Shown piece by piece: positions 3,551 through 20,452 of a DNA stretch of 64,000 nucleotides. Source of the DNA: an uncultured Gemmatimonadota bacterium (lineage in GTDB: Bacteria; JAAXHH01); assembly GCA_951812955.1 (NCBI GenBank), contig OX638340.1, forward strand, positions 3,616,001-3,680,000, written 5' to 3'. Under the pieces are notes generated by a model that made no database searches, had not been told where the DNA came from, and worked only from the letters and a program-made list of their open reading frames with translations. The translations under genes and the position numbers were made by a program. The stretch's first letter is position 1. Each line of letters begins with the position of its first letter.

Positions 3551-3780
3551 TACGTTTCATCCCATTCGTCGATTGTCGGTGTGTCGATGTCTCCATGATA
3601 GACGATCTTTCCCCGCAGTCCATCGAAGATCCTGTCAACCGATTGCTTTGGCTTTATGGGTTTTACACTGAGAACTGGACTCCGGTTATGCGTTACGATC
3701 AGATCCTCGCCCGATTCCTCGATTTCTCGAAATACCCGAAGCATATTGGCCTTCAGCTTGCTCTTCGATTTGAACAGCAT
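3550..3780 (-). CDS. Phd/YefM-family type II antitoxin
   Basis: 76 aa. KLKANMLRVFREIEESGEDLIVTHNRSPVLSVKPI matches the Phd/YefM N-terminal consensus. It overlaps the downstream PIN start by 1 nt (ATGA). Confidence 0.65.
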   Translation of the reverse strand: MLFKSKSKLKANMLRVFREIEESGEDLIVTHNRSPVLSVKPIKPKQSVDRIFDGLRGKIVYHGDIDTPTIDEWDET

Positions 3781-3950
3781 ATGGACTCCAGTCTGTTTAG
3801 TAAAAGACTATGGGCATGACCCTGGTTATATTCGAAGGATTTCCTATGAACCGTCAAGGATTTATCTCATTCTCGGCAACTTAGAAGTCGGATTCCGTGC
3901 GACTATTCCGACTGTATAGGTATGATGTTCAATTCAATGTGTAAGACAGG

Positions 3951-3979
3951 TTGACAATCGACGTCCCGACGTCTAATAT
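3951..3979 (+). promoter_or_regulatory. Sigma70-like promoter TTGACA-N17-TAATAT; start codon 7 nt after the -10 (probably a leaderless transcript); spacer contains two GACGTC palindromes
   Basis: TTGACA at 3951-3956, 17-nt spacer atCGACGTCccGACGTCta, TAATAT at 3974-3979, ATG at 3986. Confidence 0.5.
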
Positions 3980-3985
3980 TAAAAT

Positions 3986-5122
3986 ATGGCCACTAACACC
4001 GAAAGATACGCTCCTGGTCGAGTACGAGATGCGATAATCCGGGTGATGAGACTAACGACAGAAGGTTTGTCTGCTAAACAGATCGCAGCGAGAGTTGCAA
4101 AGATAGAGGGCCACATGCCTGAGTCCTCGATCAGGTCTTATCTTCGTCTGAACACTCCAGAGACATTTGTTCGTGAAAGGAGGGGGGTATACCGCCTTAA
4201 GGTAGATCATGACAGCAGTCTGCAACGAACGATGTTCAGGAGTCCACCTTGGCAGGAACCCTTCAAGTTTGGATCGGCTACATTGTTTCATAGTGAATGT
4301 TTGGATTGGCTGGACGCAAGAGATGACCAATCAATCCACGCGATAGTTACCGATCCACCTTACGGTCTGCAGGAATACACAGCGAAAGAGCAGACGAAAC
4401 TCCGAAATAGGAAGGGGGGGATCTGGAGGATTCCTCCTGCATTTGATGGCCACGTTCGTTCGCCGTTACCAAGATTCACTACTTTAACCGATGAACAAAA
4501 ACTTTATCTTCGGGAGTTTTTCTATATCTGGTCTCGTCTACTGATCCCCAAGTTGGTACCTGGCGCCAACGTGGTCGTTGCCTCCAATCCACTACTCTCC
4601 CACATTGTCGCCGGCGCTATAGCGGATTCGGGGCTTGAAAGACGCGGCGACATCGTCAGGCTTGTTATGACTATGCGTGGCGGTGATCGGCCAAAAGCGG
4701 CACATGATGAATTCAAGGACGTCAGTGTGCTCCCCAGATCAATGTGGGAGCCATGGCTGATATTCCGTAGGCCTGTGGAGGGAAGAGTACAGGACAACCT
4801 CAGAAAATGGAAAACGGGAGGGTTTCGACGGCCGACTGGACTCAAGCCATTCGGAGATGTTATTCAATCTTCCCCGACCAGAAAAAATGAGAAGGCGATA
4901 GCACCTCACCCCAGCCTTAAGCCACAATCCTTCTTACGACGCCTCGTGAGGGGTGTTCTTCCACTAGGTGAGGGTATAGTTGTCGATCCCTTTGCCGGCG
5001 CTGGCTCTACTCTCGCGGCCGCTGAAGCAGTTGGGTACGAGTCAATCGGAATAGAAAAGGATTCTCTGTACTTCAATATGGCCAAGGAAGCACTACAGCC
5101 ACTAGCCGAGCTCGAAGTGTAG
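3986..5122 (+). CDS. DNA methyltransferase (N6-adenine or N4-cytosine; beta-class, motif IV DPPY before motif I) with N-terminal helix-turn-helix-like domain
   Basis: 378 aa. Motif IV is VTDPPYG (aa ~120). Motif I is VVDPFAGAGSTLAAA near the C-terminus. The N-terminal 70 aa (…LSAKQIAARVAKIEG…) look like a winged-helix domain. Confidence 0.8.
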   Translation: MATNTERYAPGRVRDAIIRVMRLTTEGLSAKQIAARVAKIEGHMPESSIRSYLRLNTPETFVRERRGVYRLKVDHDSSLQRTMFRSPPWQEPFKFGSATLFHSECLDWLDARDDQSIHAIVTDPPYGLQEYTAKEQTKLRNRKGGIWRIPPAFDGHVRSPLPRFTTLTDEQKLYLREFFYIWSRLLIPKLVPGANVVVASNPLLSHIVAGAIADSGLERRGDIVRLVMTMRGGDRPKAAHDEFKDVSVLPRSMWEPWLIFRRPVEGRVQDNLRKWKTGGFRRPTGLKPFGDVIQSSPTRKNEKAIAPHPSLKPQSFLRRLVRGVLPLGEGIVVDPFAGAGSTLAAAEAVGYESIGIEKDSLYFNMAKEALQPLAELEV

Positions 5123-5141
5123 GGACTGAAGGAATCCTCAA

Positions 5142-5672
5142 TTACCTGTCTAGGTAAATCCAGTTCTCGCGAAGTTTACTCACGCCAAAGCGGTCAAGTG
5201 TGGCAGTTCGTGTGCCGAGTTCCCCTCTCGGATTGCGTCTAAAGTCTTCGATGGTTACCCTAGATAGGTAGACTTCCCTAAACGTCATTGGAAGTCTTGA
5301 TGAAGAGGGTTCGGTTTTGTTATCGACCTCGTATACAAATACACACATCCACTGGTCGCGCGCGCCATGTGTATCGACCGCACCGCCTTTTTTCTTCGTG
5401 GTTTTGATTTCAAGACCCTGATCTCCCGACTTAACGGAGTTTTCTGCGTAAACTCCCTGAACGAGAAGGTCAGGATGGCCATTGAAGTAGTTGTTTTCAG
5501 TAAGCACCCTTGAATGTTTAGCCAGACTGGCCGTCAGCATGTCCGATAGCACACCAGACATGATAGCGGGTCTCAACATATCGTCAAGCCGTTCCAGTCC
5601 GCGGTCTACCAGATGAGAATTGACATCGTGGAAGAAATCATAAACGTCCTGCATTGCCGACTCGAAATCCAT
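5142..5672 (-). CDS. Putative type II restriction endonuclease (PD-(D/E)XK candidate) partner of the adjacent methyltransferase
   Basis: 176-aa ORF convergent with and 20 nt from the methyltransferase. Candidate catalytic motif …GHPDLLVQ…(20 aa)…GLEIKTTKKK. AT-rich like the rest of the island. Confidence 0.45.
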   Translation of the reverse strand: MDFESAMQDVYDFFHDVNSHLVDRGLERLDDMLRPAIMSGVLSDMLTASLAKHSRVLTENNYFNGHPDLLVQGVYAENSVKSGDQGLEIKTTKKKGGAVDTHGARDQWMCVFVYEVDNKTEPSSSRLPMTFREVYLSRVTIEDFRRNPRGELGTRTATLDRFGVSKLRENWIYLDR

Positions 5673-5864
5673 AATGCGGAGCTGATATGGTAAAGTCGAG
5701 TCAGGATTGAATGATTCTCTTACTACGACATTTCTGGATTGTTTGATCCGTTCGTCTCCTTCATGTTATCTGAATGCATGTTTCAACAAAATGTGATTTA
5801 CTGTGAATTTGTAAACCACTACCTACAATATCATGACCTAGAATCTCATGAAAGTAAAATCAAT

Positions 5865-7019
5865 CTATTCCTCCACGGCCCGCAGATCCAGCGCCAGGTC
5901 GCGGAAGCTCCGCACGCGGTGTAGGGTGACCAGGTTGGTGTCGTGCTGGTTCTTGCCGCCGCGCGCGGTGCGGGCGACGACGAGTAGATCGTCTCCGGAG
6001 ATGACCTGCGAGGCGTAGCTGAAGGACTCCATAATGCTCCTGCTCATGGCCACGCATCCGGCCTGGAACCAGTTGAGGGCGTCCATGCTGTACATAAGCA
6101 TTAGGATACGCCGCTCGTTTCCCGGCGGTCCGCTGAAACCGATTCGCCGAAGGGGTTCCCGGTCCTGCCACGGGTTCGTGGACAGGGTCACCGTGGTCCA
6201 GTAGAGACCGCCTTTATCGTCGTGGACGATCTGAAACTTGCACTGGGCGCCCGGCATGGGGTGGAACTGGAGGAAACGGTAGTCGAGGTTCCGACCGTCG
6301 TCCTCGACCCGTCCGATTGATGCCAGGCTCGACGTCGTGTGGCCATCGACGATCGTGCGCATGACCATCCGGATCTCGCCGTCCACCAGCACGATGTTGC
6401 CCTCCAGGAAGCTGTCGGCCGGCACCTTGTCCTTCAGGCTTTCGGGATATTTCCGCTGCGAGAGCACATCGGGGATACCAGGAAACCGGACGTGATTGGA
6501 CATGCGCCAGGCCGCCGGATCCAGGAGGTCTCGCGCCAGGTCGCCGGCCACCACCAGCGACTTCCAGTCGAAACGGCTGGGCGCGTCGCAGGTCTCGAAG
6601 GCGCGGTAGGCATGCCCGTTGTGGATCAATACCGGCGTCGGTGCGCAGTGGTGCTTCCCTTCGAAGAGCGTGACCGGCCCTTCCCAGGTGAAGCCGCCGT
6701 CCCGGGAGCGGCCGATGACGATGTCCCGGCTTTTGCGCTTGTTTCCGATGAGATAGGCGTCGTCCCCGTAGGCCCAGACGGTCGCCCAGATGAAATCCTG
6801 GCACGACGCGAGGGTCCACGTTGCGCCGTCGTCGTCACTGACCAGTACCTCGGTCTGATCCGGCACGGATTCCTTGAGCGGACTGGGACGGAACCATTCG
6901 TAACTGGCCAGCAGGCGTCCCGAGCGCATCCGCGCGATCGACGGTGAACCGGCGTATACGTTCTCCGGGTCGGGTGACGAGGCCAGTACCTGGTAGTCTT
7001 TGGCGAGCATTCGATTCAT
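5865..7019 (-). CDS. BNR-repeat (sialidase/neuraminidase-like) glycoside hydrolase family protein; no signal peptide
   Basis: 384 aa with Asp-box motifs SDDDGATW and SRDGGFTW. Confidence 0.75.
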   Translation of the reverse strand: MNRMLAKDYQVLASSPDPENVYAGSPSIARMRSGRLLASYEWFRPSPLKESVPDQTEVLVSDDDGATWTLASCQDFIWATVWAYGDDAYLIGNKRKSRDIVIGRSRDGGFTWEGPVTLFEGKHHCAPTPVLIHNGHAYRAFETCDAPSRFDWKSLVVAGDLARDLLDPAAWRMSNHVRFPGIPDVLSQRKYPESLKDKVPADSFLEGNIVLVDGEIRMVMRTIVDGHTTSSLASIGRVEDDGRNLDYRFLQFHPMPGAQCKFQIVHDDKGGLYWTTVTLSTNPWQDREPLRRIGFSGPPGNERRILMLMYSMDALNWFQAGCVAMSRSIMESFSYASQVISGDDLLVVARTARGGKNQHDTNLVTLHRVRSFRDLALDLRAVEE

Positions 7020-7286
7020 GTCTAACGACCTCCTGGTGATTGGGATGTAAAAACGATTCTACCCGGGTGCAACGCGCTTGTCAACGGGAAGGTACCCGCT
7101 GGATCCGCTCGAAATCGCGCTACCCGAATACGAGAGCGCGAGACCTTCCCATAGTTCTTTACACGCGGCGCCATATTGCCCTTGATCTGAATCGCCCCCG
7201 ACCTGTATCATAGAACCGATCACCAGGACAACCATTCCAGATACGAACATAGCGCATCGAACCGGGTCCGCCGGGAGGATACACTT

Positions 7287-8468
7287 ATGGCCGGAAAAAC
7301 CAACCTGTCCCGCAGAGACTTGCTGATCAAGGGAGGGCTCGCGACGGCCGGCATGGCGCTGCTGCCATCCCACGTACTGGCCCAGTTGGCCCAACTGGCG
7401 CGGGACGAGACGCCCGTGGACTGGATCGATGAATTCGGGCCGCCGCAAAGCCCCGATTTCGTCCTGCTGGACTGGAACGGACTCGAATCTTGGATTACGC
7501 CCGTAGACCAGTTCTTCTCGGCGAGCCACTATCCCGAGCCCACCGTGGCCGGAGAGGGCTACAGCCTGGAGGTTTCCGGCGCGGTAAGACAGAAGCTCAA
7601 TCTGAGCCTCGACGAAATCAAGTCCATGCCGAGCAAAGACGTTATCTTCACCCTCGAGTGCTCGGGTAACCGGGGCGTCCCCGTTTTCAGGGGCGGCGTG
7701 TACAACGCCCGGTGGACCGGCACGCCGCTGGCGCCGATCCTGGAACGGGCAGGGATGTGGGGGAACGGTATCGAGGTGGTTTTCTTCGGACACGATGAAG
7801 GGGTCGAGAACATCACGCCAATTCGAAGCGAACCGCTGGCGATGAAACAGAATTTCGCCCGGTCGCTGACCACGAAACAGGCGATGGATCCGGACATCCT
7901 GCTGGCCTATGAGGTTAACGGACAGACGCTGCCGCCGAAGCACGGATATCCCCTGCGGCTCATCGTACCCGGCTGGTACGGCATCACCCAGGTGAAGTGG
8001 CTGAAACGCATCGAGGTGCGCACTACCCGGTACATGGGCAGGTTCATTTCGCGGGATTACGTCACGGTCCGCGAGGAGACCCACAACGGGGAGACCGTAT
8101 GGCGCCAGGAATCTGTTGGAAAAGGCAGGATCAATTCCGTCACGGCACGGGTCACGCGGGTCGGTCCCCTGCACCGGATCTACGGCGCGGTATGGGGCGA
8201 ACCGCTCAGGGAGGTCCAGGTGCGCATCGATGACGGAGCATGGCAGACGGCCGAAATCATCGAGGGGCTGGACGCCGAACACGCCTGGAAGTTCTGGCGG
8301 TTGGACTGGGACAGGCCTTCAGCGGGCGAGCATACGATCACTTCACGGGGCGTAACGACGGGCGGCACGATACAGCCCGCGCCGGACGATCCCTACCTGG
8401 CCGGCAAGAAGACTTACTGGGAAAGTAACGGCCAGGTGACCCGGACTATTCAGATCTTCGAAAGCTAG
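7287..8468 (+). CDS. Sulfite-oxidase-family molybdopterin oxidoreductase with Tat signal peptide
   Basis: N-terminal SRRDLLIKGGLATAGMAL (twin-arginine). Moco-binding region …FTLECSGNRG…, plus a C-terminal dimerisation domain. RBS GGGAGG 8 nt upstream. Confidence 0.8.
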   Translation: MAGKTNLSRRDLLIKGGLATAGMALLPSHVLAQLAQLARDETPVDWIDEFGPPQSPDFVLLDWNGLESWITPVDQFFSASHYPEPTVAGEGYSLEVSGAVRQKLNLSLDEIKSMPSKDVIFTLECSGNRGVPVFRGGVYNARWTGTPLAPILERAGMWGNGIEVVFFGHDEGVENITPIRSEPLAMKQNFARSLTTKQAMDPDILLAYEVNGQTLPPKHGYPLRLIVPGWYGITQVKWLKRIEVRTTRYMGRFISRDYVTVREETHNGETVWRQESVGKGRINSVTARVTRVGPLHRIYGAVWGEPLREVQVRIDDGAWQTAEIIEGLDAEHAWKFWRLDWDRPSAGEHTITSRGVTTGGTIQPAPDDPYLAGKKTYWESNGQVTRTIQIFES

Positions 8469-8485
8469 GGAACGAATCCCGATCC

Positions 8486-9598
8486 ATGGTCATCGATTCC
8501 CACGCTTACTGTTTTCCTCCGGGAGACGCGAAGGCCGGGTACGCGGACGCAGGTGAACACCTCCGTTGGATACAGGCCGAGCACGCGGTCCACCACCAGC
8601 CGGCCTGGCGGGTCCGTGACCGGGCCGCCGCGTCGTCAGATGCGATCGCTCCCGCTTCGCCCGGGGACTGGTCCACGCTTCCCGACGTGGATTTCCGCGT
8701 CGATCGGACCCATGGCCGGGTGGTGTGGACGATCGACGGCGAAGACTGCACCAAGCAGTTCTACCCGCCCCACCTGCGCAACCTGGAATACACCCCCGAC
8801 GGCCTGATCGCCGAGATGGACTATGCGGGCGTGGACGCCGCCCTGCTCCATACCAATCCCATGCTGAACCGGGACAGCGCGTTTCAGGCCGAATGTATCG
8901 CCGCATTTCCCGACCGGCTGTACTCCATGGCGCCCGTGGAAGAGTGGCGCATCGCGGCGGAACCGGACCGGGTGATCAATGAGATTGAACGGGCCGTGCG
9001 CGTTCGCGGGCTGCACGCCGTCAAGTTCAACGCCACGCTGGCATATCGCGAAAGTGACGAACGCTGGTGCGGTGGCGCCTACCGCCCCTTCTGGGATGCC
9101 GTGGCCACGCTGAAGGTCCCGGTTTTCTTTACCCTGGGCGCCGGACCCGTACTCGGCTACCACAGCGATCTGACGCAGGGCTACTTCAACGAACTCCGCG
9201 TGCTCATGGAATGGATGGACCGGTACCCGGATTCGGTCTGCAGTATCACCCACGGTTTCCCCTGGCGCATGTTTCTCGAAGGCGACCGTCTCGTCTTGCC
9301 TGAGGATCTGTGGAAACCCTACGAGAACCGCAATCTCAGCATGGAAGTCTGCTTTCCCGTGCGCATCGGCGACCTCTTCGACTTTCCCTACAGCGAGGCC
9401 CTACCGGCCCTGGAGGAGTTGGTTGGCCGGATCGGTAGCGACAGGCTGCTGTGGGGCACGGACATGCCCTTCCAGAACAGGTTCTGCACGTATCGGCAGT
9501 CCCGGGACTGGATCGAGAAGTACGCGGGTTTTCTCAGCGAAGCGGACCGTGCCGCGATTATGGGCGGCACCGCCGCGCGAATATTGGGTATTGCGTAG
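8486..9598 (+). CDS. Amidohydrolase-2 family (PF04909-type TIM-barrel metal-dependent hydrolase)
   Basis: 370 aa; N-terminal VIDSHAY… and C-terminal …LLWGTDMPF… match the amidohydrolase-2 signatures. Confidence 0.75.
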   Translation: MVIDSHAYCFPPGDAKAGYADAGEHLRWIQAEHAVHHQPAWRVRDRAAASSDAIAPASPGDWSTLPDVDFRVDRTHGRVVWTIDGEDCTKQFYPPHLRNLEYTPDGLIAEMDYAGVDAALLHTNPMLNRDSAFQAECIAAFPDRLYSMAPVEEWRIAAEPDRVINEIERAVRVRGLHAVKFNATLAYRESDERWCGGAYRPFWDAVATLKVPVFFTLGAGPVLGYHSDLTQGYFNELRVLMEWMDRYPDSVCSITHGFPWRMFLEGDRLVLPEDLWKPYENRNLSMEVCFPVRIGDLFDFPYSEALPALEELVGRIGSDRLLWGTDMPFQNRFCTYRQSRDWIEKYAGFLSEADRAAIMGGTAARILGIA

Positions 9599-9675
9599 CG
9601 AGCAGCTGACGCAGTGGGAATGTGACGTTCTCGAAAACTGTTAAAAGAATAGATAACTTTGTGATACTTTAAGTA

Positions 9676-9726
9676 CCCGGACCTGCACCCGCACCCGGCC
9701 CCGCACCCGGCCCCGAGCCCGCAGGT
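9676..9726. repeat. GC-rich degenerate tandem repeat (gcacccggcccc-like, ~3-4 units) upstream of the uxuA-like gene
   Basis: cccggacctgcacccgcacccggccccgcacccggccccgagcccgcagg. Confidence 0.5.
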
Positions 9727-9747
9727 TTACATAACCCGGAGGATTCC

Positions 9748-10734
9748 ATGCACGTCGGTACCCAGCAGTTTAGCACGGCGGACGAAGACCTGGAGTATCT
9801 CGCCCGCCACGGCGTCTTCAACAAGAACGAGAATAACATTACCTTCCACAGGGAATATGGATGGGACGTGGAGGAACTGGCGGCCAAGAAGGAGAAGTGC
9901 GCCCGGTTCGGCATCAACATGGAGATGGTGGCCCTGCCTATCGCCCAGTTCAACGTCGACGGCGGCCAGGTGCCCAATTACATGCTGGGGAAATACGAGG
10001 AAGGCGACAAGGAAATCGAACTGGTGTGCAACATGGTGCGCCAGGCCTCGGAAGCGGGCATCCCCGCGATCAAATACTACCTTTGCGAGATGGAGAACCA
10101 GCGCACCGAGAGCGATCCGCCCGGACGCGGAGGTTCGATCTACAGCACCTGGGACCTGGAGAAGGCGAAGGACCGGCCGCCGCGGTACGACGAACCCGTA
10201 ACGGCCGAGATGAATTGGGCCCGCATAACCTACTTCCTTGAACGGGTGATCCCCGTGGCGACCGAGTGCAAAGTCCGCATGGCCTGCCATCCCTGCGATC
10301 CGTGGCTGCCGCCCGGCTATCGCTGCGTGGACCGCGTGCTCGGCGGCTTCGACGGGTTCAAGCAATTCATTGAGATCTGTCCCAGTCCGTACCACGGCAT
10401 GAATCTATGCCTGGGTTGCATGGCTGAGAGTTCGCTCGACCCGCGCAACGAGGTGCCTGACATTATTCGATACCTGGGATCGCGGAACAAGATCTTCCTC
10501 TGCCATTTCCGAAACATCGTGGGCGGGAGGAACAAGTTCCAGGAAGTCTGGCCCGACGAGGGCGTCATGAACATGCACCGCAACATGCAAGCGCTCAAAG
10601 AAGTCGGCTACGATCACATGTGCGTGCCCGATCACGCGCCTGGGCACAAGGATCCGGACAGCTACCGGCAGGCCTTCGCCTACGAGTTCGGCTATATTCA
10701 GGCGATGATCCAGGCGGTGATGGACGAGGGGTAG
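9748..10734 (+). CDS. uxuA-like: Mannonate dehydratase (UxuA)-family TIM-barrel protein (short form)
   Basis: 328 aa with the segments KVRMACHPCDP, IFLCHFRNI and VPDHAPGH. From memory these correspond to VRMAVHPDDP, IYFTHLRS and RPDHGHQ of E. coli UxuA. RBS GGAGGA 5 nt upstream. Confidence 0.6.
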   Translation: MHVGTQQFSTADEDLEYLARHGVFNKNENNITFHREYGWDVEELAAKKEKCARFGINMEMVALPIAQFNVDGGQVPNYMLGKYEEGDKEIELVCNMVRQASEAGIPAIKYYLCEMENQRTESDPPGRGGSIYSTWDLEKAKDRPPRYDEPVTAEMNWARITYFLERVIPVATECKVRMACHPCDPWLPPGYRCVDRVLGGFDGFKQFIEICPSPYHGMNLCLGCMAESSLDPRNEVPDIIRYLGSRNKIFLCHFRNIVGGRNKFQEVWPDEGVMNMHRNMQALKEVGYDHMCVPDHAPGHKDPDSYRQAFAYEFGYIQAMIQAVMDEG

Positions 10735-10813
10735 GGTGCTGTTTGGCCTGGCGCGGGCAATCGACATGAAGTGAGCCAAATTGCATGGCGGTCCTGTCTT
10801 CGACACGCCACGT

Positions 10814-12592
10814 TCAAATCTGCCACTCGATCAGTTGCTGGTCCTGTTTAAGGCGTGCACGCTGATGCTGGGCGGCAATGAAGATGTCTTCCAACCCGGG
10901 CGTATCGACTTCGAGCCCCGGCAGGGAGTACCGCGCTTCCATGAGAAACCGGTCCTCCTGCGGCGATTGGATCCATGCGTGCCGCCACCACTCCAACATG
11001 CGGCCTCTCGCGTCAGCCATGGCGATGGAGGAGGGCAGCCGGTCGCTCTTTCTGAGGTTGATGTTGCCGCGGGCCGGCAGCAGGTTCCAGAGATCGTTGT
11101 TGCGCCAGCGCGCCCACGGAAAACAGTGGTCGATGTGCGGAGCGGTTCGAATGCGCGACGCAGACCATACGCAGGTAAGCGCGAATCCGTCATCGCGCAA
11201 CTGCTTCGCCCGTTCCAGGGCAACGCTGGTGTCGTAGCGGCTCTCGGTCCATTCGAACGGGTCGTTTGATACCGTTTCAGCCCCGCGATCCCGAACCACA
11301 GCGGCAGATTGATCGGTGGGGGTCGTCCACCGCGCGGTGTTGCGCAGGCTTGCCGAGTCATCCCAATTTGTAGTCAGTTGCCGCCATTCCCTTACGATGA
11401 CCGGCTCCAGCCAGCAGGCGAACTGACCGAGTGACTGCCATAGCAATGCGGGAATCCTGAGGCGACCGAACTGCGTCAGATATTCGCGGGAGAGAACGAT
11501 GGGCCGGGCGGTCGCCTGCGCCCTGGTATATCCTGATTCGAACAACTGCCGGTTGCCGGAAGCTGGATAGGTGATGTAGCGTACAGGCATCCGCTCGATG
11601 TTTACGCAGGCGTCGTTTATAGCATGGGTAAGGATGACGGCCCGGTCCGAATCAAACCTGGCACCCAGCCGAAGGTCGGAAGGCGAGACGTTCCCGAGAC
11701 GGTAGAACGCATCCTTTGCCCAGCCGTATCCGCCCGGTCCCGATGGGCGTTGCGGCAGACGATGATGCAGGACCAGGGGAAGGTATTGCTTCAACCAGTA
11801 CAGACCGACAGCGCCGAAGGGGATTTCTACGTAGTCGTCCGTACGATTGATGACTAACCCCGGCGCCGTTTCAGCGAGTCGTACCAGGATCCGAAGCAGC
11901 CCCAGCTTGTAGGTCGAGGACTTGTTGTCATTCACGATCACGTGGCGCAGCAGCGGCAGGCTGCCGGTGCCATCGTCCGGCATAGAGAAAACCAGCGTTT
12001 CCCAATGTATGCCGGGTCGCGTCAGGTCCGGCTGCGTCGAGTGGTTGCGCAGCGCGATGGCTCGGCGGTTGGCAAAACCGATAAGTTCCTCTGCCGAAGT
12101 GTCATGAAATCCCCGGGCGACATTTTCCGCGGCATCTCCGCCGCGTCGCAGCGTGAATACCAGCAGTCCGGATGGATTGAGCAGCTCGGAAAGGATGCGG
12201 AAGGCCCGTTCCCGGACATTCTGCGCCACGTGCATCCACACAGCGCTCAGTAGAATCAGGTCGAACCGCCGACCGAGCGCACGCAGAACCCTTAGATCCG
12301 GTAGGGCATCATCCATCCAAACCACGCCTGGGTGGGAGCGTTCCGCAGCGAGGTTCCGCAACGCGCTCGGTTCCACTGCCACGACTTCCCATCCTCTGGC
12401 CGCGAGCCAGTTGGCATCGCGTCCCGAACCGGCGCCGATGTCGCAGGCGAATCCAGGTTCTTCACGCAGGTGGGTCGGAGCCCAGTCTTCATGGACGTCT
12501 GCAGCATCGACTCCGTCATACTGGGCGAAGAGAGCATCTGAATTGAGGTCGTAGTATCTGGTGCTGTTCATGCGGATAGGCAAGACTGGCAC
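10814..12592 (-). CDS. Three-part protein: N-terminal class I SAM-dependent methyltransferase, unassigned central domain, C-terminal HNH nuclease motif
   Basis: 592 aa. Rossmann motif CDIGAGSGRDANWLAARGWEVVAVEP…DLILLSAVWMH. Central ~250 aa unassigned (…STYKLGLLRILVRLAE…GLYWLKQYLPLVLHH…). C-terminus APHIDHCFPWARWRNNDLWNLLPARGNINLRKSDRLPS is the HNH pattern H-x-D-H…N…N. Start is GTG 12592 or ATG 12571. Confidence 0.7.
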   Translation of the reverse strand: MPVLPIRMNSTRYYDLNSDALFAQYDGVDAADVHEDWAPTHLREEPGFACDIGAGSGRDANWLAARGWEVVAVEPSALRNLAAERSHPGVVWMDDALPDLRVLRALGRRFDLILLSAVWMHVAQNVRERAFRILSELLNPSGLLVFTLRRGGDAAENVARGFHDTSAEELIGFANRRAIALRNHSTQPDLTRPGIHWETLVFSMPDDGTGSLPLLRHVIVNDNKSSTYKLGLLRILVRLAETAPGLVINRTDDYVEIPFGAVGLYWLKQYLPLVLHHRLPQRPSGPGGYGWAKDAFYRLGNVSPSDLRLGARFDSDRAVILTHAINDACVNIERMPVRYITYPASGNRQLFESGYTRAQATARPIVLSREYLTQFGRLRIPALLWQSLGQFACWLEPVIVREWRQLTTNWDDSASLRNTARWTTPTDQSAAVVRDRGAETVSNDPFEWTESRYDTSVALERAKQLRDDGFALTCVWSASRIRTAPHIDHCFPWARWRNNDLWNLLPARGNINLRKSDRLPSSIAMADARGRMLEWWRHAWIQSPQEDRFLMEARYSLPGLEVDTPGLEDIFIAAQHQRARLKQDQQLIEWQI

Positions 12593-12866
12593 GGGTAGCC
12601 AGAATAGGCGTGCTTAGACAGATAAGCGTTTTCCCGCTTCATGCGGGCGGGCATTGATTCTTGCGGGTATCCTGCGCACGTACATGATAAAGGCGGGAAA
12701 ACGGTTGAATATCCCATGTCGAAGTCATTATCTATGATCATGCCATATTAGTCGGAAAACGGTAGATGTCAAGCAATCCAATGCGTCTGCTAACCGCGAC
12801 TGTCGCTTGTGTTTGCCTGCAGCGATGGCCTGACGTGTTCTGTGTACGCGCCAATCCCGACAGGAG

Positions 12867-13670
12867 ATGACTGTGATCTCAAAACGCATACTGCCCGGCG
12901 AGCGTCTCGACGACGCCTGGATGGAAGAAATACTCACGGACTTTTACAGGGACGGTTTCGCCCTTATACCGGGTGTGTTGACCCGGGATGAAATCGATGC
13001 CCTCCGCGAGGTGACGGACCGCTGCTTCAACGATCCCGTGCTGGCCGGCACTGATTACCTGAGCGGGCAGGGGGACGGATTCGTGCTCCGCAATACATTG
13101 GAACTGGACGCCGTATTCGTGGACATGCTGATTCGGGAGCCGATCCTGAGTCTGGCTGAAGCCGTCGTGGGAGAGGACTGTAAGTTCTGCGGGCAGAACG
13201 TGATCCGGAACGCGCCGGGCCAGGCCATTTCGCTGTGGCACGTGGACGACCGGGTGGAGTTCCCGTTGCCGGAAGACGTGCACCGCCACGACCCCCGCAT
13301 CCGCATGCCGGTGCAGTGGTTCACCATCCAGATGGCCCTGACAGATATCGATTCGGTGGAGGATGGTCCTACGCAGTTCGTGCCGGGCAGCCAGTATTCC
13401 GGCAGAGATCCCAACAGCCAGGAAAATCCGGAGTTCGAAGGCAGAGGACCGGTCTCTGCGTTATGCAAGGCGGGCGACGTCTACCTGCAGAACAACCAGT
13501 GCTGGCACCGGGGAGCGCCCGTCACATCGGATCAGATGCGCTATGTCTTCCAGTCCCAGTACGCCGCCCGTTGGGCCCACAGGCGGTTCAACGAGTATAA
13601 CCACGTACCTGTGCCGCCCACGGTTCTAAGCCGGGCCTCGGACAGGCTGCGTGGGGTGCTGGGTGCGTGA
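12867..13670 (+). CDS. Phytanoyl-CoA dioxygenase (PhyH)-family Fe(II)/2-oxoglutarate oxygenase (paralog 1)
   Basis: 267 aa with HxD motif WHVDD and a distal His; start may be GTG 12873, better spaced from the AGGAG. Confidence 0.8.
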   Translation: MTVISKRILPGERLDDAWMEEILTDFYRDGFALIPGVLTRDEIDALREVTDRCFNDPVLAGTDYLSGQGDGFVLRNTLELDAVFVDMLIREPILSLAEAVVGEDCKFCGQNVIRNAPGQAISLWHVDDRVEFPLPEDVHRHDPRIRMPVQWFTIQMALTDIDSVEDGPTQFVPGSQYSGRDPNSQENPEFEGRGPVSALCKAGDVYLQNNQCWHRGAPVTSDQMRYVFQSQYAARWAHRRFNEYNHVPVPPTVLSRASDRLRGVLGA

Positions 13671-13760
13671 CGACATGTGCTCAGGTCGGCTTGGCTATTT
13701 AACGGGGCATCCGGCCGATTGCGCAGGCCGGTACCTGGCATGGCCTGATGTACGTCTTGA

Positions 13761-14966
13761 TTAGTGCACGATAGTATCGAACCGCGCGGGCAGCGCCACC
13801 TCGAGCAGCTCGAGGTCGTCGGAGCGGTCCGTGAGGGACGTTTTCGTGTGCGGCGGAATCACGTAGGCGTCTCCCGCCTCCAGCCGGTGTGCGCCCTGGT
13901 CATCCCCGTTCAGGGTCACCTCGCCTTCCATGACGAAGGTGAAGAGGATATCGCCAGTGTGGCTCGTGACCTGTTCCGCGCCTGACGGGCTTCCCTGTTC
14001 GCCTCCTCCGCCGGGGCCTGCGTATTCGCCGCTGATCGTGCCTCCTTGCGCGGAGCCATTCGAGCCGCTGTTCGCACGTGCGACCTGCACCGATGCTACG
14101 CCGCCCGTCGCCTCGCCGATCCCTGTTTCCCGGGCTTCGAATCCCGCTAGTCTCCAGGGTTTCCAGACCGCGTCTTTGAGCTGATGGCGGCAGAATGTCT
14201 GACCGCCGAAGACACGATCGGGGTTCAGCACTCCTGTCGGCAACTCGACCTCGTGGTCGATGGTGGTCACGTGGTCCGCGGGCACGCCGATTTCGATCAC
14301 CTGCAGGTTGTCGGAAGATTCGAGCACGCGATGCCGGATTTCCGGGGGTTGGATCACGCAGTCCCCCGCCTTGAGCATGAAAGGTGGCCCCTGGTCCTCG
14401 TAGACGAGCTTCACCTCGCCACGGTAACAGAAGATCAACTGGAATCCCACCGTATGATAGTGTACAACGTCGGGAACGGGACCGGCGTCGGGGATCCGGA
14501 TGTGGGAAGCAATGATGCTCCCACCCAGGCGGCCGGGCACCAGGTCGCGGTAGTGCATGCCGGCACGGCCGATTACCCAGGGCGTGTTGTCCTTCAGCCT
14601 CCGCACGAGGAAGGCGTGCTCCGTCGGCGGGATTTCCAGCGGCGGATCGGCCCGCACGATCTCGACCCGTGTGCCGTTCGGCGCGGTGAGTTCGGTCCGG
14701 CCGCCGGCCAGAACCGCCGGATCTCGACACAGGATTCGTATTGTGCCCGGCGGTTCGGACGCGCCCTGCTCCAGCCGGATGGTGAGCCCGTGGCCGGAAA
14801 GTACGGAAACTGACGGGTAGTCGGCGGGGTAGATCTTGTCCATACGGAAACCCAGGGTCTTCATGAAGAAGGCCAGGTCCGCGGACAAGTCCGAGGTCGG
14901 CAGCCGGATCTCGGCGCCCTGGATATTGTCCTCGCGGTTGGTCTGCTTGTCGTCATGCAATTGCAT
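13761..14966 (-). CDS. Bicupin protein (two cupin barrels)
   Basis: Two cupin-like cores in an ORF of ~400 aa. Start taken at the internal MQLHDDKQ so that it does not overlap the upstream enolase gene. Confidence 0.65.
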   Translation of the reverse strand: MQLHDDKQTNREDNIQGAEIRLPTSDLSADLAFFMKTLGFRMDKIYPADYPSVSVLSGHGLTIRLEQGASEPPGTIRILCRDPAVLAGGRTELTAPNGTRVEIVRADPPLEIPPTEHAFLVRRLKDNTPWVIGRAGMHYRDLVPGRLGGSIIASHIRIPDAGPVPDVVHYHTVGFQLIFCYRGEVKLVYEDQGPPFMLKAGDCVIQPPEIRHRVLESSDNLQVIEIGVPADHVTTIDHEVELPTGVLNPDRVFGGQTFCRHQLKDAVWKPWRLAGFEARETGIGEATGGVASVQVARANSGSNGSAQGGTISGEYAGPGGGGEQGSPSGAEQVTSHTGDILFTFVMEGEVTLNGDDQGAHRLEAGDAYVIPPHTKTSLTDRSDDLELLEVALPARFDTIVH

Positions 14967-14979
14967 ATCGCCAGCTCCC

Positions 14980-16101
14980 TTATCCTTCGAAACGATACTT
15001 CTCAACGACGTCCATGTTCAGCTCCGTACCCAGTCCGGGTTTCACGGGGAGCCGGAAATAGCCGCTTTCCACGACCGGCGGATCGGTCAGCAGGTCGTCG
15101 CGCCAGGGCGCGTCCCATTTTTCGTCCACGAACTCCAGCACCAGTGCGTTTGGGATATTGGCCATGACGTGAAGGCTCGCCGTCGTGGACACGGCGCTGT
15201 TCGGATTATGGGGCGAGACCTGCATGTAGTAGCTTTCCGCCATGGCGGCGATCTTCTTGGTCTCCATGATGCCGCCCGTGCGCACAACGTCGGGCATGAT
15301 CATGTCCACCGCCTGGGCGGCGATCAGGTCCCGGAAGCCGAAGCGCGTATACCGTCGTTCGCCCACGCAAACGGGCACGTTGACGGACGCGGTCACCCGG
15401 GCCAGGGCGTCGATGTTCTCCGGGTGGACCGGCTCCTCGTAGAACAGCAGGCCGATTTCCTCGAGCCGGTTGCCGATGCGGATCGCGGCGCTCGTGGTGT
15501 ACCGGCATCCCACGTCGGTACAGAGGTCCACCCCGTCGCCCACGGCCTCGCGGCACCGGCGCATGTGTTCCAGGGCCATCTTCTCTTCCTTCAGCGTGAC
15601 AGAGCGAGGCGAGTCAATGCGTTCCCCTTTGACCAGCGGATCCGAGGGGAAGTACGCCTTGATGGCGGTAACGCCCTTGGCGGCCAGTTCTGCGCACTCC
15701 TCCGGGTCGGAGGCATGGCTGTAGAACCGAATGCGGTTGCGGCACGGTCCGCCGATGAGATTGTAGATGGGCTGACCGGTGACCTTGCCCACGATGTCCC
15801 AGAGGGCGATCTCGATGCCGCTGATCGCCGCGATGACCGTACCAGTCTGCCCGATCTGCTCCAGGGCGTAGTACATACGGTGGTACAGGTACTCTATGTG
15901 GAACGGATCCTCGCCGATGATGAGCTTGCTCAGTTCGTCCACGGACTGTGCGATGATGGTGCCGCCCGGCCAGTTCGTCGCGTCCCCCAGGCCCACGACC
16001 CCCTCGTCCGTGTAGACCTGCACGAAGACCCACGGCGAGCCGATGTCCGTCGATTTGCGCCAGGACTCCACCAGGTGCACTTTCACATCGGTGATTTTCA
16101 T
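14980..16101 (-). CDS. Enolase-superfamily enzyme, mandelate racemase/muconate lactonizing family (D-mannonate/galactonate dehydratase-like)
   Basis: 373 aa; MKITDVKVHLV…VQVYTDEGVVGLGDATNW… N-terminal capping domain plus TIM barrel typical of the MR/MLE family. Confidence 0.8.
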   Translation of the reverse strand: MKITDVKVHLVESWRKSTDIGSPWVFVQVYTDEGVVGLGDATNWPGGTIIAQSVDELSKLIIGEDPFHIEYLYHRMYYALEQIGQTGTVIAAISGIEIALWDIVGKVTGQPIYNLIGGPCRNRIRFYSHASDPEECAELAAKGVTAIKAYFPSDPLVKGERIDSPRSVTLKEEKMALEHMRRCREAVGDGVDLCTDVGCRYTTSAAIRIGNRLEEIGLLFYEEPVHPENIDALARVTASVNVPVCVGERRYTRFGFRDLIAAQAVDMIMPDVVRTGGIMETKKIAAMAESYYMQVSPHNPNSAVSTTASLHVMANIPNALVLEFVDEKWDAPWRDDLLTDPPVVESGYFRLPVKPGLGTELNMDVVEKYRFEG

Positions 16102-16215
16102 GAGATGCCTTTGGACTCTTTCATACAGATTCCGGCCGATTTCGTCGCTGGGCGCGCCAGATCATCTCTCCTGACAGACCGCATCGTGCCCGAATTCGAT
16201 GTCAGCCTGCTGGCT

Positions 16216-17019
16216 TCAGTCCCGTCGCAGGTTGCTGAACTCCGGTTTCGGACCGCCCTCTTCACGGTCCCACTGCCACAGTTCCGTGTAGGGCGACTGG
16301 GCGTGGAAACCGAAGATGACCGGTCCGTCTTCGCCCGCCCGTTCGAGCACGTCCGGATTGACCACGCGGGGCATCTCGTACTCGCAACGGGTCCAACGCC
16401 TCCGCCAGGGGCTCAACACCGCATAGCGCGGCTGGTCGGTCTGGTTCTTCGTCGTACCATGCCAGGTATTCACGTCGAAGAGCACGAGCGATCCTTCCGG
16501 GGCGACGGCAGTCCGGGCGTTGCCATAGGCCGAATCGGGCACGTCGAGGTACTCGTACCGGTGGCTGCCCGGGACGAACTCCGTCGCGCCGTTGGTCTCG
16601 GTAAAGGGGCTCAGGCAGAAGATCGTGTTCAAGGCGATCGAGTGGCTCGTGATCCGCCGGCCCTCGTCGGCATCGGGCATGGATGCGTCCCGGTTGTGAC
16701 CGGTGATACCGCTGTCGGAATGCAGCCCGTGTCCGCCTTCACCGGGCATCACCACCGATCCGTACACGGCGCTCAAAAGCGCGTCGGGGCCCAGGAAGTG
16801 TCTCGTCAGCCTCAGATGGTCGGGAAGCTGGTAGAACCGTTCGAACACCCGCGCCTTGTTGAAGAGCCATTCGAAACTGCCCCGCTCGCGGTTGGGGTAA
16901 CGTGTTTCGAGTTCCCTTCGCGCTTCCGCGCATTCCTCTGCCGTCAACTGGTCCGTCAGGATGGTGTATCCCTCAACCTTCAGGTCCAGCACGTGGGCTT
17001 GAAAGGATTCGTCTGTCAT
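16216..17019 (-). CDS. PhyH-family dioxygenase (paralog 2)
   Basis: HxD motif GLHSDSG…; start placed at the internal MTDESFQ. Confidence 0.75.
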   Translation of the reverse strand: MTDESFQAHVLDLKVEGYTILTDQLTAEECAEARRELETRYPNRERGSFEWLFNKARVFERFYQLPDHLRLTRHFLGPDALLSAVYGSVVMPGEGGHGLHSDSGITGHNRDASMPDADEGRRITSHSIALNTIFCLSPFTETNGATEFVPGSHRYEYLDVPDSAYGNARTAVAPEGSLVLFDVNTWHGTTKNQTDQPRYAVLSPWRRRWTRCEYEMPRVVNPDVLERAGEDGPVIFGFHAQSPYTELWQWDREEGGPKPEFSNLRRD

Positions 17020-17120
17020 AGGTTGATTCCGGCTCTCATGTGATGCTTGTTCGACCAGCGCAGGGTTTGGCGGATCAACGGCCGGTATGGCCATCGCCCG
17101 GTCCGCGGCGTCCGCTCGAA

Positions 17121-17936
17121 TCAGCGTCCGGCCAGGTCGTCTCCGAGGTCGGTTGCGTCCACTTTGCCTTTCTCCAGGCTCACGCCGACGACGAAGAGCT
17201 CGAGGTCATCGTCCGTATGGTTGTAGATTCCGTGAGCACTGCCCAGGTTATTCAGAATGGCGTCCCCGCGGACGACCTCCTCGGTCTCGCCGTCCACCGT
17301 GATCCGGCCCCGGCCGTTCATGATCATGTAGGCTTCGTCCACGATCTCGTGCCGGTGGTAGCCCACGGAAGTACCCGGCGGCAGTAGGATATGGCAGAGG
17401 TATTCGAAATTTGTCGTGAAATCCCGACTTCCCCATACCTCCCGGAAAAGCACTTCGCCCTTTCCACCGTGATGCCGCCGGGGCTTCAGTAAGGCGCGGT
17501 TGAACCGTCCCACGGGCAATCGATCAGCGGACTCCAGCTTGACCTCTATGCGCGGGTCGTCGAAATCCTCGCACATCGGGGTGCGGGTGGGGTCCACACA
17601 GTGGAAGTTGAAGAACCAGGTATCCTGGTCCGAGTGGTTGTAGATGCCGTGGGATTCACCCGAGCGGAGGGGCACCGCCGCGCCGCCGTCGACTTCGGTC
17701 GTGCGGCCGTTGTGGGTGAACTGCATGGCGTTGTCGATGGTGACGAAGATCTCTTCCGAGTGGATGTGCGTGTGTTGCCCGATGCCGCTGCCGGGCGGGA
17801 AGATGACAGAGTGGATGAACGACCAGGGAGACTTGAACGCCGTCGCATCGAACCCCGGGTTGAAATAGCTCGCCGCGGCGCCGCCGTGGCTGACGCCCAA
17901 TCTCATCTCTTCGCGCCTTGTATGGGTTATCCGCAT
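17121..17936 (-). CDS. Bicupin protein
   Basis: 271 aa with two cupin_2-like halves (…IGQHTHIHSEEIFVTIDN… and …VGYHRHEIVDEAYMIMNGRG…). Confidence 0.7.
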   Translation of the reverse strand: MRITHTRREEMRLGVSHGGAAASYFNPGFDATAFKSPWSFIHSVIFPPGSGIGQHTHIHSEEIFVTIDNAMQFTHNGRTTEVDGGAAVPLRSGESHGIYNHSDQDTWFFNFHCVDPTRTPMCEDFDDPRIEVKLESADRLPVGRFNRALLKPRRHHGGKGEVLFREVWGSRDFTTNFEYLCHILLPPGTSVGYHRHEIVDEAYMIMNGRGRITVDGETEEVVRGDAILNNLGSAHGIYNHTDDDLELFVVGVSLEKGKVDATDLGDDLAGR

Positions 17937-18806: not shown

Positions 18807-19169
18807 TCAGTTCCACTTCTCGAGTATGAAATCGAAACCCACGTAGTCGTTTTCCAGGTCCTTGTACTCGTACAGCTTGGGGATGGGGTACTGCACCACG
18901 CGCCACCCGTCGGCAACGGCCTCCAGCACGGAGTCGTACGGCGGCTCGTCGCCCGGCAGTCTCAGCACGGGCTTCTCGCCGGGAACGAATACCACCCAGC
19001 CCACGATCCCGGACCGCATATTGGTCGACCGTGCGGTCAGGTACATGATCTTCGGCCGGGGCGGGTTTTCCAAGAACGATTCCAGCTTGTCCAGGTCCCG
19101 TTCTTCCAGTGCGCCGTTTTCGAGTTTCCCGCGGCTTTCAGCGATCCACTGCCTGATTTCCGATTGCAT
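18807..19169 (-). CDS. Hypothetical protein, first gene of the minus-strand PhyH/bicupin/enolase cluster
   Basis: ~120 aa from the internal start MQSEIRQW…; no recognisable domain. Confidence 0.4.
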   Translation of the reverse strand: MQSEIRQWIAESRGKLENGALEERDLDKLESFLENPPRPKIMYLTARSTNMRSGIVGWVVFVPGEKPVLRLPGDEPPYDSVLEAVADGWRVVQYPIPKLYEYKDLENDYVGFDFILEKWN

Positions 19170-19533
19170 TTCGTGATGTCCCTTTGCCGAGTCTGACGTC
19201 GCGGACAATACAGATGCTAAAGGTGTAATGTACAAGGCGTTCTGATTATCGATGTCAGGAGTACGAATGCTCCTGCAATGGTACAGAGGCTACCGGTACC
19301 GTGTCAAGCAGGAATGAACCGTCTTTTTTGAAGGTGGTTTCGGCATGGAAGCCGCTGGTCTTGACAGCGTCCGGCACGCCGCTTAAGTTGCCTTCTGACG
19401 GTCATCGAAATGCGATCATCCAGGTCATTCAGTTCATTCCGACCAGCTGAACAGCGTGCGCAATTCGGGCAGAAACTTCCGGTCCGTCGATTTCCCGTTA
19501 CCAATTTCGATTCTCAGTTTAAAGGTATTCTAT

Positions 19534-20283
19534 ATGTCCCACGCGCAACCCCTGAATGCCCAGCAGATCGCCTACTTCAAGCTAAACGGCTACCTGGTCC
19601 TGAAGAACGTTTTCGACGAGGGAACCCTGGAGGCATGGCGGCGGCAGATCTGGCGGGCGCTCGATGGCTGCCTCGAAGATCCCGCGACCTGGCCCAGGGA
19701 AACGAGCGGTCTAGACGGGTACGATTACGATCCGCCCGAATCGGCCCTTGTGCACCATCCACAGATGATGGCGATCATCGACCAGCTCAGCGGGGGAACT
19801 TTCGTCGCTGGCGACGGCATTCCGATCATTCGGTGGCCCGATCCAGGAAAGTCCTGGGAAATGCCCCAAACGGGACATATCGATGCCTACGGGGGACGCT
19901 GGCTGCCCTTCATGATCGGCGCGACGACCTACCTGTACGACGTGGAACCCGGCGGCGGAGCCTTGATCTACTGGCCGGGAAGCCACCACGCCGCTCACCG
20001 GTACTTTCTCGAGCATCCCTCGCATGTCGACGGCAGCTTCCTGGAGATCGAGGGGTTTTCGTGGGACGTGTTCTGCGACAACCCGGCCACCGGCGGCCAG
20101 GAGTTTACCGCGAAGGCCGGCGACGTGGTGCTCTGGCATGCCTACCTGACCCACAACGGATCGGAAAATACCAGTCATTCGCCGCGCTTCGCCCTCTTCG
20201 CACGCTGGAACCATGAGAAACACCTGGAGCAGTCCTTCAGATACGAGATCCCCGAGGATCTGTGGAAGTATTGGGCGGTGTGA
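19534..20283 (+). CDS. PhyH-family dioxygenase (paralog 4)
   Basis: Start at MSHAQPLNAQQIAYFKLNGYLVLKNVF… (typical PhyH N-terminus); TGHIDAY HxD motif. Confidence 0.8.
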   Translation: MSHAQPLNAQQIAYFKLNGYLVLKNVFDEGTLEAWRRQIWRALDGCLEDPATWPRETSGLDGYDYDPPESALVHHPQMMAIIDQLSGGTFVAGDGIPIIRWPDPGKSWEMPQTGHIDAYGGRWLPFMIGATTYLYDVEPGGGALIYWPGSHHAAHRYFLEHPSHVDGSFLEIEGFSWDVFCDNPATGGQEFTAKAGDVVLWHAYLTHNGSENTSHSPRFALFARWNHEKHLEQSFRYEIPEDLWKYWAV

Positions 20284-20452
20284 GAGAGAACGCCTAAACT
20301 GCGGTTGTTTGATAGAAAACCGTCGTCTCGTGTAATGAGGCATACCTTAGAGCTGAAGATCCGTACAGAGATTCCCGGTTCAAGCCGGTTCGCTGTCTCG
20401 CCGTCGACAATATGATTTCGAGAACAGTCGCTGTTCCCCGACTATACTGTCA

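Follow-up and report, generated by a model that had tools for sequence, protein, structure and literature searches.

A methyltransferase, an unclassified reader-like domain and a Cas9-type HNH nuclease in one chain: a candidate mobile anti-invader nuclease from an uncultured Gemmatimonadota bacterium

Type IV, or modification-dependent, restriction endonucleases are laid out as a reader domain and a nuclease without a cognate methylase. In those of the ScoMcrA/SprMcrA type, arranged as SBD-(SRA)-HNH (PDB 5ZMM, 5ZMO, 7CCD; PMC6224610, PMC7461809), the reader is a sulfur-binding domain (SBD), which others have viewed as a winged helix-turn-helix (PMC10853773) and which recognises sulfur through a cavity lined by H116, R/K117, Y164 and P165 (PMC6224610). 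Other described combinations are the winged-helix-HNH and the EcoKMcrA/TagI-type endonucleases (PMC11037411, PMC6182155, PMC6765204), while type IIG/IIC enzymes such as MmeI and BpuSI hold a DNA methyltransferase (MTase), a target-recognition domain and a nuclease in the same chain. Here, we describe a gene in which an S-adenosylmethionine (SAM)-dependent MTase, a reader-like domain and an HNH nuclease are fused, located on a stretch of 64,000 nucleotides (hereafter the window; contig OX638340.1 of assembly GCA_951812955.1, positions 3,616,001 to 3,680,000) from an uncultured Gemmatimonadota bacterium. With a probability of roughly 0.55, we read its product as a one-protein, horizontally mobile anti-invader nuclease, in which a type IV-like reader and a Cas9-type HNH domain would be combined with a SAM-dependent MTase module.

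Regarding the reality of this gene, the open reading frame (ORF) was found exactly as reported in an initial annotation of the window, with its length, GTG start and strand, and the translation confirmed the SAM-binding and HNH motifs that had been quoted (Table 1). Since its protein has more than 2,589 homologs and a confident, compact AlphaFold model over its full length (mean pLDDT 90.0, pTM 0.86), a chance ORF of a GC-rich genome can be excluded, and we regard the gene as genuine; among the homologs, the full-length architecture is retained to at least 30% identity. Translation probably begins not at the listed GTG but at the ATG located seven codons downstream (Met8), because most close homologs are 585 aa long and begin with 'MN(S/G)..YYD'. 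Residue numbers given below are those of the listed ORF.

The N-terminal module is a class I SAM-dependent MTase. Families Methyltransf_23, 11, 12 and 25 of Pfam cover residues 43-179 above the gathering cut-off (Methyltransf_23, E = 1e-11), and motif I and the acidic residue after beta-2 are both in place. In an alignment of 52 sequences reaching down to 30% identity, G53 of motif I is invariant and D51, G55, G57, R58 and D59 are conserved in at least 90% of the sequences; E74 of the SAM site, as well as W92, D95, P98, L100, V118, W119 and H121 outside of it, are likewise invariant or at least 90% conserved. The cut-offs of the TehB families are missed (PF03848, 19.8 against 20.4; NF008405 (PRK11207), 27.4 against 218; TIGR00477, 15.8 against 219.5), NCBIfam returned sub-threshold TehB, UbiG and daptide-MTase matches only, and a sequence search of the PDB retrieved TehB-like MTases only. 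Structures close to that of the module include S-, Se- and halide-methyltransferases (TPMT, thiol MT, TmtA, NmbA and TehB-like enzymes). Neither a (D/N/S)PP(Y/F/W) nor a C5 'PC' motif occurs in the module, which matches none of the DNA-methylase families of Pfam (N6_N4_Mtase, MethyltransfD12, N6_Mtase, DNA_methylase). Pfam, NCBIfam and the structural neighbours hence support the initial view that this MTase resembles small-molecule, TehB-like enzymes rather than DNA methylases, and we assign it to the small-molecule type (RPA2492/UbiG/TehB-like), as distinct from a canonical DNA methylase. To our knowledge, small-molecule MTases of this kind have never been found fused to a nuclease. Unlike the module described here, the TehB/RPA2492/UbiG-like enzymes (PDB 3E23, 2XVA, 2I6G, 4KDR) are standalone proteins with metabolic or detoxification functions.

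At the other end of the protein, Pfam HNH_4 matches residues 486-520 with a score barely above threshold (23.4 bits for a cut-off of 22), and a D-H dyad, supporting Asn residues and a beta-beta-alpha fold are present. D488 and N503 are invariant in the alignment and H489, N512 and K515 at least 90% conserved. The domain is therefore best classed, from these features, as an HNH of the Cas9/HNH_4 type (D-H...N...N) devoid of zinc-binding cysteines. While Pfam bears out both domain calls made initially, MTase at the N-terminus and HNH nuclease at the C-terminus, the motif, called canonical there, turned out not to be of the classical zinc-finger H-N-H type.

Between these two modules lies a domain of ~210 aa. 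No Pfam family covers residues ~180-485, as anticipated by the initial annotation, which had found no assignable motif in this region; yet conserved signature residues do exist. Indeed, P205-D206-D207 of the junction with the MTase and R216, D222, K224, Y228, K229, L232, L233, R234, P258, G260 and W266 either never vary or are kept in at least 90% of the sequences. The domain is followed by a linker, poorly conserved both in the alignment and in an exhaustive search, which is the sole disordered stretch of the AlphaFold model. An SBD was sought here by several routes. PF26340 (DNA-SBD_ScoMcrA) does not match the protein, a profile built from 24 middle-domain sequences did not retrieve any SBD from the PDB sequences at E <= 10 (spurious haemoglobin matches only), and hhalign against an alignment of 14 genuine PF26340 members gave a probability of 0.2%; the domain is thus ruled out as an SBD at the sequence level by Pfam, the PDB profile search and hhalign. 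Foldseek returned only HNH domains of Cas9 and, weakly, EcoKMcrA; no SBD was recovered. Motif look-alikes can be seen by eye only ('YK(L/P)xLLR' for '(H/N)KPLLxL' and 'PF' for 'YPFW'), with a spacing of 30 residues against 49. If the middle domain resembles an SBD, it would be at the level of the fold, and modestly so.

Relative to ScoMcrA and SprMcrA, the protein has no detectable sequence homology and Foldseek does not recover them; its middle domain is longer than an SBD (~210 against ~160 aa) and contains an extra alpha/beta subdomain, its HNH domain is of the Cas9/HNH_4 type without zinc finger instead of the HNH_2 or McrA type, it has no SRA domain and it carries a SAM methyltransferase at its N-terminus. 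Regarding the winged-helix-HNH and EcoKMcrA/TagI-type endonucleases, none possesses an MTase, and the reader described here falls in no described family.

The three-part fusion is a fixed feature of the family, as far as sequences can tell. At 50% clustering, an exhaustive HMMER search with the middle region alone (185-480) returned 577 representatives for E <= 1e-3, of which 305 also passed E <= 1e-10; MTase, middle domain and HNH were present together in 47 of the 47 complete representatives, the shorter matches looking like fragments, and no representative carried the middle domain in another architecture. The initial annotation had named variation of the middle domain and of the HNH residues among homologs as a reason to abandon its proposal; both are in fact kept down to 30% identity.

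Nevertheless, the modules prove separable. A protein of 387 aa encoded by a Tolypothrix plasmid aligns to residues 210-521 (E = 1e-18), has no MTase, and its alignment begins exactly at the DNK..YK..LLR motif. It belongs to a sister family composed of the reader and HNH_4 (>1,000 homologs, ~385 aa), mostly cyanobacterial and often plasmid-borne, whose members bear no annotation beyond 'HNH endonuclease domain-containing protein' or hypothetical. These MTase-less genes stand solo in mobile contexts, and no consistent methylase neighbour was found in the loci examined. As the reader and HNH unit persists without any MTase, the latter is not required for nuclease function, and as this sister family has no linked methylase, the nuclease needs no protective one. 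We thus consider residues ~205-592 as a likely autonomous core unit, and the sister family agrees better with a nuclease that is type IV-like or gated in some other way than with a single-chain restriction-modification (R-M) enzyme. The family also includes a Nostoc/Anabaena PCC 7120-type plasmid member, and in Nostocales plasmids the gene is divergent to an HNH_2 nuclease gene.

The preferred reading of the protein as an anti-invader nuclease can be formulated as follows. The reader and HNH domains are laid out like a type IV restriction endonuclease, with a reader and a nuclease and without a cognate methylase. The winged-helix-containing domain would present a near-invariant helix (Y228-K229...R234) followed by a beta-hairpin wing, and this helix and wing most likely contact nucleic acid, probably DNA bearing some modification. 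The bound DNA would then be nicked or cleaved by the beta-beta-alpha-metal site (D488-H489, N503, N512). The intact SAM-binding MTase, which forms the N-terminal ~200 residues and is linked to the reader by the invariant PDDGTG loop, would not be a host-protecting cognate DNA methylase but most likely a SAM-dependent control or catalytic module: either the activity of the nuclease would be coupled to SAM binding, or the MTase would methylate a non-base acceptor, for example some small molecule, or else a nucleophilic group carried by modified nucleic acid. The sequence data themselves establish the domain composition, the conserved SAM-binding and HNH residues, the constant fusion, relatives that lack the MTase or consist of it, the patchy and mobile distribution and the defence or restriction neighbourhoods. 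We infer nucleic-acid binding and modification dependence from the architecture and the neighbouring genes, and a DNA target and the role of the MTase are to be understood with the same reserve.

A protein in which MTase, putative DNA-recognition domain and nuclease share one chain, with SAM as ligand, also recalls the type IIG/IIC enzymes, and one may suppose that the MTase protects host sites read by the middle domain while the HNH cuts unmethylated DNA. The logic is that of type IIG, the SAM and HNH sites are both intact, and the gene stands solo without a separate methylase. However, type IIG/IIC enzymes employ a gamma-class N6-adenine DNA MTase with NPPY, a target-recognition domain and a PD-(D/E)xK nuclease, whereas a small-molecule MTase and an HNH are found here; no DNA MTase domain with such a target-recognition domain is found in the chain. 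The missing DNA-methylase motifs and Pfam families, the persistence of the MTase-less sister family without a linked methylase, the occurrence of the same MTase alone with a membrane protein in prophages (see below) and the failure of the PADLOC R-M models, including REase_MTase_IIG, to match the protein render this scheme quite improbable. The self-contained restriction-like enzyme envisaged by the initial annotation, taken as a restriction-modification enzyme, is consequently not supported, its MTase having no DNA-methylase features and its sister family having neither MTase nor cognate methylase.

The MTase also exists by itself. Standalone homologs of ~200 aa, with 33-44% identity and sharing W92, D95, LP98 and AVW119MH121, are located on plasmids, in phage phi458 and on ~20 viral contigs. 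On all viral contigs that include upstream sequence, the gene is directly preceded by one coding for a small hydrophobic protein, homologous throughout, and the two genes of this cassette overlap or directly abut; its carriers are phi458, where it lies next to the integrase, 18 viral contigs and a Sphingopyxis plasmid. The phi458 Orf2 and the 141-aa protein of Sphingopyxis are mutually homologous and hydrophobic, and the hydrophobic partner is absent at the standalone-MTase loci of Burkholderia, Methylomonas and Azospirillum. One type of MTase thus appears to pair with a nuclease in cellular genomes and with a membrane protein in prophages. The small upstream genes were also compared with the middle domain, to which they are unrelated.

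Such pairs could be explained by a SAM-sensing or 'guard' mechanism of abortive infection, in which the MTase would be the sensor (reading SAM occupancy, or methylating or binding a trigger derived from phage) and the effector interchangeable, either HNH or membrane protein. The recurrence of the MTase behind a small hydrophobic protein in phi458, on the 18 viral contigs and on the Sphingopyxis plasmid speaks for it, and exchanging a nuclease for a membrane effector while keeping the enzymatic module is familiar from defence systems. Moreover, the invariant PDDGTG junction and the high pTM suggest tight coupling between MTase and reader. On the other side, the trigger to be sensed is without evidence, and reader and HNH exist together without any MTase. 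Furthermore, tehA/tehB is a pair devoted to small-molecule detoxification, and a membrane protein coupled to an MTase could equally be of this type and unrelated to defence. We regard the guard mechanism as rather unlikely, even though it comes first among the alternatives by support, before those linked to phosphorothioate (PT), to single-chain R-M and to housekeeping, in this order.

The distribution of the family brings in another line of evidence. The three-part architecture spans several phyla in a patchy manner, nine plasmids carry full-length copies, and none was found in phage genomes or viral contigs. The closest named metagenome-assembled genomes (MAGs) of the window's clade are Latescibacterota/Gemmatimonadota-type, and this clade is 73-77% identical to gammaproteobacterial copies. 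Horizontal mobility is indicated by the plasmids, the high identity between phyla and truncated copies in one defence island. Cultured carriers include Marinobacter litoralis (Sw-45), Grimontia marina (CECT 8713), Veronia, Roseomonas, Azospirillum and Sinorhizobium fredii NGR234.

We further surveyed the neighbours of homologs, as recommended by the initial annotation, reading them within the fetched flanks after dereplication of the loci at 80% identity into 65 lineages. Defence and restriction genes recur beside the gene in unrelated lineages, in islands and on plasmids: at least 25 of the 65 lineages have such a neighbour, a raw count and lower bound given without background rate. A SauUSI-like PLD-helicase-DUF3427 type IV enzyme (for SauUSI, see PMC3141236) is found in 10 loci, mostly within 500 bp, including those of Marinobacter litoralis (L024), Grimontia marina (L026), L037 and seven more (PADLOC mREase_IV, E = 7e-215); with shorter DUF3427 proteins in three further loci, DUF3427 reaches 13 loci and 9 of the 65 lineages. 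Other neighbours are Mrr, a Schlafen-type helicase with an S24 peptidase, NOV_C, TIR, Zorya and CBASS, and at some loci HNH_2 or SBD-HNH genes lie directly downstream. When neighbours were clustered all against all, first in 32, then in 38 and finally in 93 loci, no universal partner gene emerged; in Gammaproteobacteria and metagenomic loci, the neighbours varied from locus to locus.

Two regions deserve to be described. On a Ca. Rariloculaceae chromosome (L016, 112-11782), three copies of the gene, an intact one of 587 aa and truncated ones of 425 and 271 aa, are found within 12 kb, interleaved with a phosphoribosyltransferase (PRTase) pair, a complete CBASS operon (cyclase, E2, SAVED-2TM) and an RmrA/CapP-type regulator. 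Such an arrangement is suggestive of a defence hotspot where insertion or recombination has happened repeatedly. Downstream, the region is flanked by an ORF pair that is itself repeated. Three related gammaproteobacterial MAGs (L034, L036 and L038, ~6000-17000) have common flanks: an HSP15-like gene bounds the region at one end, and Glu-Cys ligase, DsbB and a radical SAM gene bound it at the other; in between, the cargo varies and comprises PIN/Phd toxin-antitoxin pairs, AAA_15/DUF3696, an RNA ligase, SBD-HNH and repeated small ORFs. Since the target gene is kept in all three amid this changing cargo, the region is a variable-island hotspot.

Several observations weigh against the anti-invader reading. 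In ~60% of the dereplicated loci, no recognisable defence neighbour is present (again a raw figure without background rate), and the family is missing from PADLOC: in PADLOC-DB v2.0.0, no entry matches the full length, and mad2 alone was hit (E = 2.5e-10) over the generic MTase region 44-153. The conservation of W92, D95, P98, W119 and H121 suggests that the MTase performs real catalysis on a defined substrate. Finally, in the window and in ~19 related MAG loci, the gene lies between metabolic genes and outside a defence island. In the window, a UxuA-like TIM barrel, an amidohydrolase and a molybdopterin oxidoreductase are found on one side and PhyH, a cupin and an enolase-superfamily enzyme on the other; the order PhyH-like, target gene, UxuA-like is kept in the ~19 loci of Latescibacterota/Gemmatimonadota-type MAGs, at 80-92% identity. 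The compact defence nuclease imagined by the initial annotation is hence favoured by the neighbourhoods of other lineages and not by the metabolic synteny of its own clade.

This fixed place would suit a housekeeping or metabolic enzyme, for instance one that modifies or processes RNA or tRNA and that is found near defence genes incidentally, an idea to which a weak PHROG match annotated 'tRNA methyltransferase' and the mostly housekeeping context of L034 can be added. However, the genomes concerned are close relatives (80-92% identity), and for this reason we set the synteny aside as functional evidence: it reflects vertical descent and is uninformative on function. The patchy distribution across phyla, the 73-77% identity that links the window's clade to Gammaproteobacteria, the copies on plasmids, in insertion sequence-rich islands and as truncated duplicates, and the lack of a conserved operon partner all argue against such a role. 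Moreover, at none of the loci surveyed was the gene associated with genes for translation or RNA modification, so that the tRNA or rRNA modification operons which the initial annotation had considered damaging to its proposal did not materialise. A housekeeping function appears to us the least probable of the explanations considered.

Reader-nuclease proteins located beside PT genes are a known theme (PMC10853773), and three of the 65 lineages have Ssp genes near the target gene. In L036 and L038, its stop codon and the start of a genuine SBD-HNH gene (sequence match to 7CCD and 5ZMO) overlap, and SspD comes next. In L109, it is convergent with SspD-SspC, with SspA divergent (11857-17508), and is the only nuclease adjoining the Ssp cluster, SspB (DUF4007), SspE and SspFGH not being detected in the 21 kb available; it holds, beside SspD/SspC, the position usual for a PT-sensing nuclease partner such as SspE or SspFGH (PMC8092258). 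In addition, the standalone MTase cassette of the Sphingopyxis plasmid is 66 bp away from a complete SspABCD. In L036 (11683-13352) and L038 (11680-13578), the ScoMcrA-like SBD-HNH gene precedes an apparently orphan SspD (PADLOC, E = 6e-81 and 5e-100), with no SspA, SspB or SspC within 10 kb; a PT reader-nuclease paired with a single PT-synthesis gene is unusual.

From these loci, which we consider suggestive without being decisive, the middle domain might be a divergent SBD-type reader and the protein a PT-dependent nuclease or an alternative Ssp restriction partner, the MTase acting on the PT sulfur or on a sulfur intermediate; the S-, Se- and halide-methyltransferases among its close structural neighbours would be in keeping with the latter. 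Against this stand the small number of lineages, the negative searches reported above (PF26340, PDB profile, Foldseek, 0.2% with hhalign) and a likeness between 'YK...PF' and 'HK...YPF' that is by eye only and differs in spacing. The protein also has no homology with SspE (DUF262 + DUF1524) or SspFGH. This explanation is in our opinion unlikely, more so than the guard mechanism. It can be extended to a new class of conflict system formed by the family and its prophage relatives around a sulfur/selenium-type MTase, in which the divergent SBD-like reader would dock on PT-DNA, the MTase S-methylate the PT sulfur so as to neutralise or mark it and the HNH nick the DNA, while the phage or plasmid MTase would serve as a counter-measure or mimic; we offer this as a speculation with little chance of being correct.

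If the reading as an anti-invader nuclease is true, current catalogues have overlooked a large family of defence nucleases, each encoded by one gene, with a wide phylogenetic spread. Nucleases composed of a reader and an HNH domain are a known kind; what is new is the fusion to a small-molecule-type MTase, together with a reader that belongs to no described family and an MTase cassette in prophages. Databases annotate the fused protein as 'class I SAM-dependent methyltransferase' only, PHROGs contains no specific family for it, for the MTase-less form or for phi458 Orf2, and the fusion is undescribed in the literature searched (methyltransferase-HNH fusions, SBD + methyltransferase, Ssp partners). 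The fused MTase would be of a kind not known in restriction, and its prophage-borne standalone form resembles an arms race. Identifying the methyl acceptor could reveal a new coupling between SAM and immunity or a new nucleic-acid modification, and the compact reader and HNH unit could serve as a modification-specific nuclease. Experiments are feasible, as cultured organisms carry members of the family.

Table 1. Coordinates of the gene, its domains and other features (window positions unless a locus is given; residues of the listed ORF)
Feature	Position	Strand	Residues	Remarks
Whole ORF as listed	10814..12592	-		592 aa from GTG, stop codon included
Probable real coding sequence	10814..12571	-		585 aa from ATG at 12571 (Met8)
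Class I SAM-dependent MTase module	11981..12571	-	8-204	Includes C-terminal beta-hairpin 180-203
SAM-binding motif I, ACDIGAGSGRD	12416..12448	-	49-59	
Reader-like domain	11357..11980	-	205-412	
Junction loop PDDGTG			205-210	Start of middle domain; fusion-specific
Signature helix N-D-x-K-S-S-T-Y228-K229-L-G-L-L-R234				Middle domain
Beta-hairpin, then P258-F-G260...W266			249-258 (hairpin)	Middle domain
Linker	11273..11356	-	413-440	Variable, predicted disordered (pLDDT <50)
C-terminal HNH nuclease domain with flanking helices	10817..11272	-	441-592	
HNH_4 core motif HIDHCFPWARWRNNDLWNLLPARGNINLRKSDRLP	11033..11137	-	486-520	Putative catalytic D488-H489, N503, N512, K515
MTase-less relatives (examples)	L040 6022-7185; L042-L047			
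Cassette of small hydrophobic protein (~140-220 aa) and ~200-aa TehB-like MTase	L039 2336-3519 (phi458); L132-L151; L051 14840-15870			
Promoter-like site TTGACA-16-TAATAT	12745..12772	-		Consensus match only; ~175 nt upstream of ATG
TIR-like protein	2307-2768			By eye only
MNT-type nucleotidyltransferase	2774-3079			By eye only
Phd/YefM-like antitoxin	3550-3780	-		By eye only
N6_N4 DNA methylase with DPPY	3986-5122			Pfam E = 2e-16
176-aa ORF	5142-5672	-		Convergent with N6_N4 methylase; candidate restriction enzyme partner
268-aa ORF without Pfam family	19410-20216			
Second PhyH-family gene	21400-22227			

Elsewhere in the window, positions 1800-5700 form a low-GC patch (49-51% GC for ~60-64% in the flanks), which looks like a small acquired defence or R-M island and contains the first five of the last seven features of Table 1. 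The statement of the initial annotation that no partner methyltransferase lies nearby consequently holds for the adjacent genes and fails beyond them, the DPPY-containing N6/N4 DNA methylase of this patch being 5-9 kb away; that methylase is present in some of the syntenic relatives only. A tRNA scan of the window found nothing, and there is therefore no obvious integration site. Scans for promoters and terminators gave counts no higher than chance (one promoter-like site for 1.2 expected from shuffles), the promoter-like site being inside the 274-bp divergent intergenic region upstream of the gene. A second stretch of lower GC content (52-57%) extends over positions 19000-22300 and holds the last two features of the table.

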